DNA of 64,000 nucleotides from Candidatus Borrarchaeum weybense (GCA_019057385.1 JAHQJS010000008.1:140286-204285), one strand, 5' to 3'; positions 29,023-47,054 are shown, counted from the first letter of the stretch. The notes: generated by a model not told the origin, from the sequence alone. Translations and numbers: made by a program.

Positions 29023-29073
29023 AAGAAGCACCCTTCAATTCTATCTATTAGATAATGTCAAATGCCCTTCATC

Positions 29074-29222
29074 GTGAACTACCCCACTCTTACGGATGGG
29101 GCTTCCTGCGAGTCCTCCTAACTCCCTACGATGGGAGAAACTTTCGTTTTACACTTGGCTGTGTGTCGCAGATTATCGAGAAATACCCGATAGCCTGTCC
29201 ACTTGGCATTCTGTGATAGGTA
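29074..29222 (-). ncRNA. Predicted omega-RNA scaffold overlapping the tnpB 3' end (predicted guide GATGAAGGGCATTTGACA...)
   Basis: Position at the right end; hairpins conserved with compensatory changes in element K. Confidence 0.75.
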
Positions 29223-30362
29223 ACGTTTCATGAGGATGATTGCACTATTTTTGTCCCTCTCTATCACGTTACCACAGTCACATCTCATAACTCGTTTCCA
29301 AATTGGCATAAAGTGCTGTTTGCCGTACATCCAACATTCTTTGGTCGAGTTTCGTTCGTCACTTTCTATTGTCCTTTTACCTACTCGCCTCGACTTGTAG
29401 GTTAGAAAATGCACGAACCGTCCCAGCGCCCCTGTGTTCTGTGTAGCGCGGTTCAACCCCGCTCTCATGGCTTTCGGCACCTTGTTCGACTGTGCCATGC
29501 ATTTGACTTCTAGCTGGCCTACGATCAGAGTGTTAGCTTTGGTGTTCTCCACCAGTTTCCTGCTGAGTTTATGTTGAAAATCACGTGTCTGATCATCCCG
29601 CTTCCGCTCGTATTTCTGTTTGATCTGATTGAGCAATTTCCATCTGTTGCTGAATTTCTTACACTTATCCTTCCGCGATTGTACCTTGGCGATTTTCGGA
29701 TTCCAATATTTGTCCGGGCGCTGATTTTTCACCATCAAGAACTTGCTCTGGGAATTTACTGCCGTAACGATATGGGTAATGCCGAGGTCGATGGCTTGAT
29801 ACCGACCGTTATCTACAAAGGGGGGTTCTTCCAACTCATAGGTGATGGTCACAAAATATCGCCCTCTATGTGATGAGATGGCGACTTGTTTTACCTGTGT
29901 ATCGTCAAAAGAGAATTTGTCAGGGATGGTAAATTCCAGTGGTATATCATTGTATTTGTGGGAAAAGGTAATCATTCCGGGTTCGATCTTGAACCCTGAC
30001 TGGTTATACACCATAGTGGTGAAGTAGTTTTTTCCTTTGAATCGCGGGAGACAGGCCTCGATGTGCCCGTTTTTTCGAAGGGCAAAGAACGACTCGTAAT
30101 CAGCAGCTAATGCCCTGAGAGCATACTGTAAGACCTTAGAATACACCCACTTATACTCTGGGAATTGCTCTTTGATGAGTGGCAGGTCGTTTTGCTGCTT
30201 GCGGTAATTCACACCCTTTGCTCCAGTTCTATAGGCGTCCATTCTTTCAGCAAGGGCAAAGTTATAGATGAGTCTGCATTTTTCCGAGAGTTTCCAAAGC
30301 ACAGTTTTTTGTGCGTGATTCGGAAAGATCCTGATTTTCTGTGTGAGTTTCATGGATTTCAC
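29118..30362 (-). CDS. tnpB: RNA-guided endonuclease TnpB (rearranged RuvC-II type)
   Basis: N-terminal HTH (IYNFALAER), RuvC-I AIDLG, RuvC-II LIVGQL with alternative DERNSTKEC, RuvC-III ERDKNSA. Confidence 0.93.
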   Translation of the reverse strand: MKSMKLTQKIRIFPNHAQKTVLWKLSEKCRLIYNFALAERMDAYRTGAKGVNYRKQQNDLPLIKEQFPEYKWVYSKVLQYALRALAADYESFFALRKNGHIEACLPRFKGKNYFTTMVYNQSGFKIEPGMITFSHKYNDIPLEFTIPDKFSFDDTQVKQVAISSHRGRYFVTITYELEEPPFVDNGRYQAIDLGITHIVTAVNSQSKFLMVKNQRPDKYWNPKIAKVQSRKDKCKKFSNRWKLLNQIKQKYERKRDDQTRDFQHKLSRKLVENTKANTLIVGQLEVKCMAQSNKVPKAMRAGLNRATQNTGALGRFVHFLTYKSRRVGKRTIESDERNSTKECWMYGKQHFMPIWKRVMRCDCGNVIERDKNSAIILMKRYLSQNAKWTGYRVFLDNLRHTAKCKTKVSPIVGS

Positions 30363-30902
30363 CAGACTCTGATATTACTAGTTATACCCAAAAAGTCTAT
30401 ATAAGACCAGTGGCTTTCATCCCCTACCTGTCGGAGGGGGACTTCCCACCGATTAAGTTAAAAGATATTTGTCAAGTTAAACTTTTCAAGTATCCTCTTT
30501 TATTTTCAATATGTAAATAACAATGAAATCTCAGAAGTTTTGAGATTTCGCAATGTAGTATTCCTAGAAAAATGCTTTATTGAAAGAAATGTCAAATTTC
30601 CATAGAATATTTTCTTCGTATTCCGTTAAATAAACGCATTAACTATAAATAAAGACTATAAAAATAAAGATTAGATTAATAGACTTATCTTACGTAAACT
30701 ATAACTTTGTTAGCCTTGTTAAGGCTCTTTTAATTTGCAGAACTTTTAGCTAAAAAATTCTATGGAATTTGAGAATTTCGCAAAAACGTTTAAATAGTCG
30801 AACGTCACTATGTAAGAGAATGTGAACCATTCAAATAAGATTGAGAAATATGAACTATCCAGATATAATTGTTAAGAGAATTGAGTTGAGTGAGGGAAAG
30901 AT

Positions 30903-44374: not shown

Positions 44375-45334
44375 ATGGTGGAGAGTACTGAATTAACTGA
44401 AACTAAATTTACACCGGGTGTAGCTATTTCTTCTCAAGAATGTATGGAATGCGGTTCAACTGAAATTGTAATGGACTCTATTCGAGGGGAGAGAATTTGT
44501 AGTATATGTGGATTAGTAATTACAGAACATGTGATAGATACTGGTCCTGAATGGAGAGCGTTTACTTCAGATGAACGCAATAAAAGAAGCAGAGTAGGCA
44601 GTCCAGTCTCATGCGTTGTTCCTTCTATGGGACTATCAACTATGATTGGGTGGGAAAATAGAGATATTTATGGCAACAAATTGTCACCAAAAAAACGTGC
44701 CCAAATCTATAGATTGAGAAAATGGCAAATACGAACAAGATCACAAGGTTCTTATGAGCGTAATCTCTCCCACGCTATACGCGAACTAGAAAGACTTTCT
44801 AGTCAACTTGGAATTCACAATGGAGTAAAAGAATCAGCGGCTGTCATCTATCGGCGGGCTATAGAAAAAAAGTTAGTTCGTGGACGTTCAATAGAAGCTA
44901 TGGTTGCTGCATCTGTGTATGCAGGTTCACGACTTAGGAAAGTTCCTCGTACCCTGGATGAGATTGCCCAGTGTACACGTGTTAATAAAAAAGAATTAGG
45001 TCGTTGCTATCGTTTAATTCTTCGAGAACTTCATATTTCAATCCCCATAGCCAGTCCAGTTGACTTCATTTCTCGTTTTAGTGAAGAATTAAAAATCTCT
45101 GGAAAAACTCAACAACGTGCAATAGAAATTCTAAATCAAGCAAAAGAATTTGGAATTACTGCTGGTAAAGATCCAACTGGTCTTGCTGCTGCAGCATTGT
45201 ATATCTCAAGCATTACTGAAGGTGAGAGAAGAACCCAAAGGGAAATTGCAGAAATAGCAAGGATAACTGAAGTTACTGTTCGTAACCGCTACAAGGAAAT
45301 TGTTAGAGTACTTGGAATAAAAATAGCTGTCTAG
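44375..45334 (+). CDS. tfb: Transcription initiation factor IIB
   Basis: Zn ribbon CMECGS..C..CG, GPEWRAF, RLRKWQ, LVRGRSIE, GKDPTGLAAA, TEVTVRNRYKE. Confidence 0.97.
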   Translation: MVESTELTETKFTPGVAISSQECMECGSTEIVMDSIRGERICSICGLVITEHVIDTGPEWRAFTSDERNKRSRVGSPVSCVVPSMGLSTMIGWENRDIYGNKLSPKKRAQIYRLRKWQIRTRSQGSYERNLSHAIRELERLSSQLGIHNGVKESAAVIYRRAIEKKLVRGRSIEAMVAASVYAGSRLRKVPRTLDEIAQCTRVNKKELGRCYRLILRELHISIPIASPVDFISRFSEELKISGKTQQRAIEILNQAKEFGITAGKDPTGLAAAALYISSITEGERRTQREIAEIARITEVTVRNRYKEIVRVLGIKIAV

Positions 45335-45371
45335 ATATTATATTAAATGGCATTATCCTTCTTTTTTTTAA

Positions 45372-45672
45372 TTTTATTGGCGGGAAGTCCCCTTGCGCCA
45401 GCTGGGGGATGAAAGCCGCAAGGTTTTTATAGTGTTTTGCACAGAAGAGTTCTGATGAATATCGAGAGGAAAGCAGGGATACAAGACTCTTGATAGGAAG
45501 GCAGTATGGTGTGATTTTGAAACCTGAGGGTTGCTATCACAGAATGCCAAGTGGACAGGCTATTCTCTTTAGAGGGTAATCTGCGACACACAGCCGAACG
45601 TAAAACGAAAGTTTCCCGCAAGGGTTGGGAGGACTCGCAGGAAGCCCCATCTGAAAGGGTGGGGTAGTTCAC
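45372..45672 (+). mobile_element. ORF-less element K: left end + TATA + omega-RNA scaffold cognate to the 29-kb TnpB + right end
   Basis: About 140 nt homologous to the tnpB 3' end with conserved hairpins; same TTTAA + 7 nt left-end geometry. Confidence 0.9.
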
Positions 45673-47054
45673 TGAACATGTTGATACCATCGTTTATATT
45701 CCACTAATGCCCCTAATGTTCTAATAGCTCTTTCTGGTAGTGTATGAACTGGAATTTTGTTCCACTCTAAAAATCTTTTATATTTTTCAAATTGCTTAAA
45801 TGTGCTTCCCAAGCAGGATATAATAGGTTTTTTACTGCTTTTCATAACTGCAACAAGTGTTTTGATTGTCTGAAACTCGATATTTGGACCACTTGGGATT
45901 GTTACGACAAGCACAGAATCAACTTGTGGGTCGCTTAGAATGAGTTTTGTTACCCATTCATATCTCTCCGTGTCAGCATCCGCTGCTAAATCAACTGGAT
46001 TTGAAGGGGTACAATGTTGAGGTAAACTATGCAATTGTTCAAGCGTTTTACTGCTAAACTCTGCAAGACGTAAATCATTATTTTCAAGAGCATCTGCTGC
46101 TAAGACACCATGTCCACCACTATTTGTTATTATACCCACATTATTTCCTTTAGGTAATGGTTGAGTTGCAAAGCAATAGCAAATATCAAGGAGTTCTTCT
46201 AGATCCTTTGCAGTGATTACACCTGTTTGTTTGAACATTGCTTTAAATGATTCTACAGAACCTGCGAGAGACCCAGTATGTGATTTTGAAGCTTTTGCTC
46301 CTGCTTCTGTTTTTCCAACTTTGCAAATAATAACGGGTTTTGCTTTAGTAACCTCTCTTAGTGTCTTGTAAAATCGTCTTCCTTCTTTTACACCCTCAAC
46401 ATACATTCCGATAACTTTAGTGGTTGTATCTTGTTTTAAATATCCTAGAAGATCGCTTTCATTTACATCTATGGCATTTCCATAAGAACATGTTTTACTA
46501 ATTCCTATCCCCCGATATGCACACCATTCAAGTAGTGTTACAAGGATTGCTCCAGATTGGGATAACAACGCAATATTTCCTTTTGTTGGATATCCTATTG
46601 TCCTTTCACGTGGTACAAGAAAACTATTGATTCCAGAATAAGGATCAAATATACCAATACAATTTGGACCAATGATTTGCATTCCATACTTATGAGCAAT
46701 TTTTGTGATTTCATTTTCTCTTTCAGTTCCTACTTCATTTCCTGTTTCTCCAAAGCCTCCAGTGACAATTATAATTACTTTAACTCCCTTTTCTCCGCAT
46801 TCTTGAACAATCTTAGGAACTTGTTGTGCTGTTAAAGCTATTATTGCAAGATCCACAGATTCAGGAATATCCTTTATTTTGGAATAAACAGGAGTGTTCA
46901 AGATTTCATCTGCATAAGGATTAATTGGATAAATTGTACCTTTGTATTTTTGGAGAATCATGTTCTCTAGAATTATGTACCCGATTTTTCCTTTATTCCT
47001 ACTTGCTCCGATTATAGCAACATTAAGGGGAGAAAAAAAAACTTCTAATGATAT
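45669..47054 (-). CDS. acdA: ADP-forming acyl-CoA synthetase alpha subunit; in-frame N-terminus extends to an ATA codon at 47054
   Basis: (I/M)SLEVFFSP.NVAIIGAS..KGKIGY, IIGPNC.G, SQSGA, SHTGSLAG, TNSGG.GVL. Confidence 0.88.
   Translation of the reverse strand: MSLEVFFSPLNVAIIGASRNKGKIGYIILENMILQKYKGTIYPINPYADEILNTPVYSKIKDIPESVDLAIIALTAQQVPKIVQECGEKGVKVIIIVTGGFGETGNEVGTERENEITKIAHKYGMQIIGPNCIGIFDPYSGINSFLVPRERTIGYPTKGNIALLSQSGAILVTLLEWCAYRGIGISKTCSYGNAIDVNESDLLGYLKQDTTTKVIGMYVEGVKEGRRFYKTLREVTKAKPVIICKVGKTEAGAKASKSHTGSLAGSVESFKAMFKQTGVITAKDLEELLDICYCFATQPLPKGNNVGIITNSGGHGVLAADALENNDLRLAEFSSKTLEQLHSLPQHCTPSNPVDLAADADTERYEWVTKLILSDPQVDSVLVVTIPSGPNIEFQTIKTLVAVMKSSKKPIISCLGSTFKQFEKYKRFLEWNKIPVHTLPERAIRTLGALVEYKRWYQHVQ

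Follow-up and report, generated by a model that had tools for sequence, protein, structure and literature searches.

The window analyzed here is a 64,000-nucleotide stretch of the genome of Candidatus Borrarchaeum weybense, and positions are counted from its first letter. The element that we followed up, hereafter K, lies between the 3′ end of a gene for the transcription factor TFIIB and the 3′ end of an acdA-like gene. A full-length tnpB element is found elsewhere in the window. The features to which we refer throughout are as follows, with nucleotides written as RNA where the helix is considered in the predicted transcript:

29074–30457, minus: local full-length tnpB element, IS1341-type without tnpA, 1,384 bp (tnpB, 29118–30353; omega-RNA core, ~29074–29248; TTTAA, 30458–30462)
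44375–45334, plus: TFIIB gene (Pfam TFIIB, Zn_Ribbon_TF)
45367–45371, plus: TTTAA target and TAM, directly 5′ of the left end of K; without K, the stop codon of acdA (TAA, minus strand) is taken from it
45372–45672, plus: element K, whole, 301 bp; a protein-less IS200/IS605 derivative made up of a left end, a promoter-like box, and an omega-RNA scaffold/right end
45380–45419, plus: left-end subterminal imperfect hairpin, GCGG..CCCC..GGGG..CCGC, conserved in all copies; presumed TnpA recognition structure
45424–45431, plus: TATA-like box, TTTTTATA; homologue of the box upstream of tnpB in full elements, its position kept in all short and full copies
45460–45495, plus: 5′ hairpin, UAUCGAGAG / CUCUUGAUA, restricted to the short-element family; 98.5% paired, one pair occurring as GC, AU, or GU; present in the fold of K
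45504–45505, plus: junction of an internal deletion private to K; 93 alignment columns missing that are present in all 29 other aligned copies
45510–45541, plus: helix P0, GUGUGA / UCACAC region, preceding the core scaffold; 95.6% paired in the protein-less alignment
45551–45556, plus: closing helix P1, 5′ half, GUGGAC, with the six terminal bases of K (45667–45672) as the proposed partner
45561–45578, plus: stem 1, TATTCTC-TTTA-GAGGGTA; five of six counted pairs double-changed across the family
45581–45640, plus: central helix, CUGCGA (45581–45586) / UCGCAG (45635–45640), enclosing stem 2; 98.8% paired, nearly invariant
45615–45624, plus: stem 2, CCC-GCAA-GGG, a short form of longer hairpins in tnpB-linked copies; two of three pairs double-changed
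45644–45665, plus: stem 3, the terminal hairpin of the RNA and the right-end subterminal hairpin of the transposon; four of nine pairs double-changed; DNA fold computed
45667–45672, plus: right end, GTTCAC; 3′ strand of P1 and transposon boundary, at which homology among all copies ends exactly
45669–46961, minus: acdA-like NDP-forming acyl-CoA synthetase gene (Succ_CoA_lig and CoA_binding domains)
45673–45688, plus: predicted 16-nt guide, TGAACATGTTGATACC, in flanking DNA, antisense to the last acdA-like codons; position follows from the TnpB mechanism (PMC10691335, PMC10055086)

K has no plus-strand ORF of at least 60 amino acids and no tnpB reading frame. An 87-amino-acid ORF antisense to K (45427–45690, minus strand) overlaps the end of acdA; it matches nothing in Pfam and is in all likelihood spurious. 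The two ends of K are not inverted repeats of each other, and each carries a subterminal hairpin that is kept in every copy; taken alone, the DNA fold of the left-end hairpin is not significant (z-score of −0.9). Within the family of short elements to which K belongs, conservation of the sequence starts at GATGAATATCG, ~23–27 nt downstream of the TATA-like box, and based upon this onset and the spacing from the box, we place a putative transcription start near 45454. A search with Rfam covariance models gave no match at gathering score anywhere in the window, and the omega-RNA type of K matches no curated Rfam model.

The TnpB protein of the local element (411–414 amino acids) has the Pfam domains OrfB_IS605, Cas12f1-like_TNB, and HTH_OrfB_IS605, and in a comparison with the PDB matched ISDra2 TnpB at an E-value of 1.5e-16, a distant relation. 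When K (plus strand) was aligned with the minus strand of 29040–29420, the two were found to be nearly identical from ~45534 to 45672 (against 29212–29074), with divergence confined mainly to three hairpins. The last ~140 nt of K are homologous to the 3′ end of tnpB and the omega-RNA of the local element; beyond the right end that was compared in the preliminary description, the left end of K, too, shares homology with that of the full element. That description had reported that stem TATCGGG/CTCGATA becomes TATTCTC/GAGGGTA in K, and we find that three of the seven pairs (45561–45567 with 45572–45578) are indeed double-changed and two have become G.U, with all seven still paired. The replacement of CTCCC-ATCGTA-GGGAG by CCC-GCAA-GGG (45615–45624), with its pairing kept, and of the terminal loop GTAA by GAAA (45653–45656) were likewise seen, the terminal stem gaining one pair as C.A became C-G, and the linkers are near-identical as described (in 40 copies, 45 columns are invariant and 61 nearly so). 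That both terminal loops are GNRA is, on the other hand, coincidental, given that the commonest terminal loop of the family is GUCA and that the loop of stem 2 can be GCAA, GCAC, GCAU, GAAA, or GUAA; conserved GNRA loops were rejected as a feature because loops vary across the family. Twelve substitutions were listed in paired columns between K and the local element, none of which breaks a pair; part of stem 1 is shifted by one register in the alignment used, and an anchor-based count agrees. RNA-type structure, rather than coding, is conserved, as had been proposed: K is without a tnpB frame and keeps every helix and every invariant linker.

The insertion site of K

K is inserted 3′ of TTTAA and onto the stop codon of the acdA-like gene, without target duplication. 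In congener G002, the interval from TFIIB to acdA is collinear with that of Ca. B. weybense, the two flanks are 97% and 93% identical, and K is precisely absent. The empty site reads ...TTTTTTTTAA followed directly by TGAAATTGCTG..., i.e., TTTAA/TGAA, with nothing duplicated. In this empty state, acdA ends in His-TAA with a stop codon provided by TTTAA, whereas in the K-inserted state it ends in Gln-TGA and the stop codon (45669–45671, minus strand) is inside K. Contigs from two other sequencing runs bridge the end of TFIIB into the left end of K, with 1 and 5 differences. A second congener, G004, is also without K at the orthologous site.

It had been predicted that TTTAA serves as the TAM and that the guide begins with TGAACATG at 45673, antisense to the 3′ end of acdA. 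The exact K-less site in G002 bears out the insertion together with the predicted TAM and guide: TTTAA precedes each of the eleven copies in the genome and is found at the empty site, and these same copies, together with the G002 site, fix the boundary at which the guide begins. The 16-mer guide occurs nowhere else in the genome. At the occupied site, TTCAC stands directly before this 16-mer in place of TTTAA, and without the TAM the site would not be self-targeted. A lone TTTAA-flanked near-match to the guide seed (12 nt, 1 mismatch) is located at C4:513125 on the plus strand; about one is expected by chance.

In G004, the joint (G004:C101, locus L031, ~1747) reads TTTAC/TGAA, the T-run is two bases longer, and acdA still ends in Gln-TAA. 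This non-TAM version of the site could be either a simple substitution or a trace of past activity of the element.

Relatives of K and the search for a parental tnpB

We searched the whole assembly (4.18 Mb in 8 contigs, 37% G+C), four genomes of the same genus, and metagenomes; the relatives belong to Candidatus Borrarchaeum/Borrarchaeota and Candidatus Sifarchaeum (Asgard archaea). The genome of Ca. B. weybense itself has eleven elements of K's family, comprising seven with an intact tnpB and four that are gene-less, namely K (301 bp) and three others of ~390 bp. All eleven have TTTAA directly before them and end in GTAGTTCAC, and similarity between copies stops exactly there. Compared with the other family copies in the genome, including the one that bears tnpA, the left end of K is 76–91% identical and the right end 75–88%. 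The right end of K is, moreover, 86–93% identical to those of protein-less elements, as opposed to 75–83% for tnpB-linked right ends.

In addition to K, 29 full-length protein-less copies were aligned (three from the same genome, 16 from the four congeners, and 10 from sediment metagenomes). Additional short copies that are cut by contig ends were used in the alignment of right ends only. Each of the 29 is ~390 bp, lacks an ORF, and carries the "changed" stems, i.e., CAUCCUC/GAGGAUG or a close variant, plus CCC-GNNN-GGG. Since all of its siblings have them, the stem differences from the local tnpB element are a property of the family, and not of K. Contrary to what had been proposed, K thus does not descend from the local tnpB through compensatory changes, but is a member of a separate, genus-wide family of protein-less ~390-bp elements. 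The caveat that accompanied the proposal, namely that the changes could predate loss of the ORF, holds insofar as they predate K, but covariation continues within the protein-less lineage.

The siblings of K are found in unrelated genomic contexts. In one ~390-bp sibling (G004:C88:1430-1950), a scaffold segment of ~34 nt, extending from stem 2 to the central helix (~87–120 of the element), is inverted and the central helix is destroyed; this copy is evidently dead.

A search for a closer parental tnpB had been suggested. No tnpB with stems of the K type was identified in the genome itself, in the congeners, or in the scans of one genome per species and of metagenomes. BLAST of the genome and inspection of the right ends of the four congeners gave no closer parent, and a TnpB protein search in the congeners gave no TnpB with the short-element versions of stems 1 and 2; two congener TnpBs, at 61–62% identity, have a group-B-like stem 1 and a different terminal hairpin. 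In one genome per species, the exact pattern occurred in 12 stretches, each of them a short element from the genus of K. Contigs of metagenomes, searched by pattern, also gave 12 stretches, all ORF-less, including 10 with both ends ~390 bp apart, and tblastn detected no tnpB in them. Because the pattern scans catch exact matches only and repeats are lost from MAGs, the absence of a parental tnpB is weak evidence. Since no TnpB was found with the short-element stems 1 and 2, compatibility of these elements with the resident TnpBs is an assumption.

A 3′ fragment of tnpB at a contig end (G003:C168:3550-3975) has a stem 1 of the IS type (TATCAAG/CTTGATA) together with a stem 2 that is short (CCC-UAA-GGGG). 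Of all that was found, this fragment comes closest to a transitional form between the scaffolds linked to tnpB and those of protein-less elements.

Covariation, folding, and the deletion in K

The right-end alignment has 40 rows: besides K, it contains 25 short elements and 14 copies linked to tnpB, among the latter one from a different family within the phylum. Across these right ends, the 30 proposed pairs in five helices are paired in 97.7% of cells, compared with 32–46% when the 3′ partners are slid by 1–3 columns. Eleven pairs are double-changed (1–7 in the slid controls), and none of 500 column shuffles reached the observed covariation score. Across the family, stem 1 occurs in at least four versions in which the two strands compensate each other. 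The copies encoding the two TnpBs at 61–62% identity add a fifth, and their terminal hairpin differs completely in sequence but is likewise paired. The terminal hairpin is at the same time a DNA structure that the transposase recognizes, and its covariation need not therefore reflect RNA. The central helix hardly varies and is thus neither supported nor contradicted by covariation; similarly, P1 (GUGGAC/GUUCAC) is pairable in 99.2% of cells, yet both of its strands are essentially invariant, so that covariation is silent for or against it. An equivalent of P0, GUGAUAG/CUAUCAC, can be drawn in the full element, as read from its sequence.

To consider the gene-less lineage separately, the protein-less copies alone were aligned (30 rows, of which 25 are distinct) and a structure of 71 pairs was obtained for the whole RNA. 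In this set, 97.4% of cells are paired versus 34–42% in slid controls, and nine pairs are double-changed, a number reached by one of 500 shuffles, where the structure was derived from the same sequences as were counted and related copies are non-independent. The counts among protein-less copies alone indicate that pairing is maintained within the gene-less lineage. RNAalifold also paired AAUAU at the 5′ end of the transcript with the 3′ end and drew an inner helix around ACGAAAGU; both involve invariant columns only and were not counted.

K differs from the consensus of the short elements at 17 of 141 core positions, eight of which are in stems, and none of the changes breaks a pair. The closest sibling differs from K at 11 core positions, five of them in stems, again with no pair broken. 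At columns that are at least 90% conserved in the other copies, K deviates at only four, and three of these deviations are wobble-preserving changes in stems. The predicted 219-nt transcript of K folds into the same helices (MFE of −68.9 kcal/mol, z = −2.8). The structure-preserving substitutions of K may all predate its insertion and deletion, and do not prove selection on K itself.

The 93-nt 5′ RNA domain that is missing from K comprises 22 base pairs, itself covaries (e.g., pair 176–217 as GC or UA, and pairs 164–228 and 187–196), and includes a non-coding remnant of the tnpB region at ~29355–29420. No second 301-bp copy was found in the genome, the congeners, or the metagenomes. The domain may be needed in K's family, even though the analogous region of ISDra2 is dispensable, and its loss makes activity of K less certain than that of the ~390-bp siblings.

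Sequencing runs were screened for sampled words of the window, and none had half of them or more. Four runs were examined as contigs; K itself is absent from the one RNA library with relevant contigs, X2, a wetland metatranscriptome, the contigs of which represent ~390-bp siblings with 95 extra letters at the deletion point of K. One of these sibling contigs begins upstream of the TATA-like box; carry-over of DNA is possible, and the contigs lack information on strand and ends. X2 hints, at best weakly, at transcription of family members, and shows nothing either way for K.

Possible partners of K and interpretation

The genome encodes seven intact TnpB ORFs of this family that share 72–100% amino acid identity, and all four congeners with short elements carry the same TnpB family. 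Fourteen further TnpB genes in the genome are ~26–31% identical to the local one (e.g., C4:63701-64789, C6:302595-303680, and C7:428241-429332). In the local TnpB, the first zinc-finger motif is CWMY (~29325–29327, minus strand), a Cys-to-Tyr change that is unique when compared with the CxxC of the six paralogues and relatives. The protein also has Gln in the motif G-x-L-x-V-K (~29514–29516, minus strand), where the six paralogues have Glu or Asp. When ISDra2 TnpB and an AI-designed relative were used for HMM alignment, the RuvC-II glutamate fell near this motif without an unambiguous position, and since position x among relatives is E, D, Q, A, or K, the local Gln cannot be called inactivating. 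Based on these residues, the local TnpB, which had been proposed as the partner of K, may be impaired and would seem the least safe choice among the seven. The only Y1 transposase gene in the genome (C7:194221-194586; Y1_Tnp, 131 bits) is intact and resides in a 1,778-bp element with tnpA and tnpB (C7:194108-195885) that belongs to the same family as K. Its product is the likely mobilizer of all eleven copies, including K.

We consider it probable that K is a non-autonomous, protein-less IS200/IS605 derivative, which could be described as a PATE/MITE-like element or as a "stand-alone omega-RNA", with a presumed capacity for movement and a presumed role as a guide. In this scheme, the Y1 TnpA from the C7 element would move K in trans as single-stranded DNA, and the TATA-like box of K would drive a transcript from ~45454 through 45672 into the flank. 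A TnpB made elsewhere, by one of the seven resident paralogues, would load the scaffold together with ~16 nt of flank, and the complex would cut the K-less site, i.e., TTTAA followed by the guide sequence from 45673. Recombination with a K-bearing copy would then restore K, as in the published mechanism of TnpB homing and retention (PMC10055086, PMC10691335). PATEs often encode omega-RNAs for which the TnpB of other elements must act in trans (PMC10055086), and stand-alone omega-RNAs function in trans (PMC10691335).

K might instead be a dead relic, in which a ~390-bp element was crippled by the deletion, the stems were simply inherited, and what is left would do no more than supply the stop codon of acdA and fill space between genes. 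Such a view is favored by the fact that K alone among the 30 aligned copies has the deletion, that the lost domain is conserved and covarying in every other copy, and that contigs of the RNA library show siblings and not K. However, everything needed under the ISDra2 paradigm has been kept, including both ends, the TATA-like box, and a core scaffold of ~165 nt; the 5′ 115 nt of the ISDra2 omega-RNA are dispensable, and cleavage is unimpaired after removal of the 5′ region (PMC10097598). The 11 core differences from the closest sibling have left every pair intact, and the few deviations at conserved columns are mostly wobble-preserving. We regard the relic as unlikely, whilst recognizing that the loss of the domain weighs in its favor. 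A quite different possibility is that the pairing serves a structure in single-stranded DNA for "peel-and-paste" transposition by TnpA, and not a guide RNA. Stem 3 is indeed the subterminal hairpin of the right end and has an analogous hairpin at the left end, and G.T wobbles would fit top-strand DNA as well as RNA. Yet stems 1 and 2, the central helix, and P0 sit 30–160 nt inside the right end, whereas TnpA requires only subterminal hairpins and cleavage motifs, according to the established IS608/IS200 biochemistry cited in PMC10055086. The same region is, in addition, the omega-RNA of tnpB-linked copies, and PATEs have been reduced to 52 bp and are maybe still mobilized in Haloquadratum (PMC3119063), which implies that a long structured interior is not required for movement. 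We consider this explanation highly improbable.

The least probable of the readings is that K has been co-opted, either to act on the acdA-like gene as a cis-antisense or regulatory RNA, through convergent transcription into its 3′ end, or as the guide for a nuclease-impaired TnpB that acts as a repressor. The transcript predicted for K would enter the final codons of acdA in antisense orientation, K supplies the stop codon of this gene, the neighboring TnpB has unusual substitutions, and TnpB-derived RNA-guided repressors are known (PMC10705468). The antisense geometry is, however, an automatic outcome of insertion at a TTTAA that overlaps the stop codon, the siblings occupy unrelated contexts, and the guide matches its own flank only. 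The insertion is also absent in close congeners, from which it follows that it is recent and not fixed. Returning to K as a non-autonomous element with a guide-RNA module, we tentatively entertain the possibility, which we think doubtful, that the ~390-bp elements constitute an independent and long-lived lineage of orphan guide RNAs, with stems of their own but without a cognate tnpB, which live as parasites on TnpB and TnpA from two or more of the resident IS subfamilies. In that case, K would represent a naturally minimized guide (~165-nt core) that is still active. If this were so, the conserved 5′ domain would be dispensable for guidance and would serve another purpose, e.g., RNA stability or processing.

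ISDra2, the TAM of which is TTGAT, has no sequence similarity to K, for which the TAM is TTTAA. As in the omega-RNA type of K, the scaffold of the ISDra2 omega-RNA overlaps the 3′ end of tnpB; as predicted for K, the guide is 16 nt long, and several stems are closed by pre-guide nucleotides that pair with a segment more than 100 nt upstream (PMC10097598). The position of P1 in K resembles that of the pseudoknot in the ISDra2 omega-RNA (PMC10097598), a resemblance only; P1 is invariant in K's family. With its shortened 5′ region, K looks like a natural counterpart of "Trim1", the engineered 5′-trimmed version of the ISDra2 RNA (PMC10097598).

At the level of sequence, K has every feature by which PATEs were defined in Haloquadratum (PMC3119063). 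Like the PATEs of haloarchaea, such as HqIRS71 of Haloquadratum walsbyi (PMC3119063), K is protein-less, has subterminal hairpins but no terminal inverted repeats, made no target duplication, has a target oligonucleotide of 4–5 nt at its 5′ end, and shares its ends with IS605/IS1341-type elements of the same genome. HqIRS71 and K also both keep an extended terminal segment, including a non-coding remnant of the C-terminal region of tnpB. The two are nevertheless unrelated in sequence and come from different phyla (Halobacteria and Asgard archaea, respectively), and K is a further-deleted, 301-bp version of a ~390-bp family. The descriptions of PATEs (PMC3119063) predate the understanding of the retained segment as a guide RNA. 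Stand-alone omega-RNAs (PMC10691335) and the PATE-like elements of Geobacillus stearothermophilus (PMC10055086) are, like K, mobilized scaffolds without a gene for effector or transposase. With both, K shares the presence in the same genome of effector-bearing elements with similar ends, and a guide that, for K by prediction, is taken from the flank past the right end. Their function in trans was demonstrated experimentally, whereas for K we infer it. K's family differs from them in having its own TATA-like box and an extra 5′ hairpin, and in that no tnpB was found with the same stem versions.

As stand-alone omega-RNAs and PATEs have already been described, K reveals no new mechanism. New here are the 301-bp deletion variant, the exact empty site, with a TAM that also provides a stop codon, the counts of covariation over the whole family, the search for a parental tnpB with its negative outcome, and the odd residues of the local TnpB. 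Among protein-less IS200/IS605 derivatives that have retained a module for a guide RNA, K is a clean and well-delimited natural case from an Asgard archaeon, and its family offers a panel for cross-compatibility between omega-RNAs and TnpBs, with seven TnpB paralogues, three scaffold versions, and one natural deletion of the 5′ domain.
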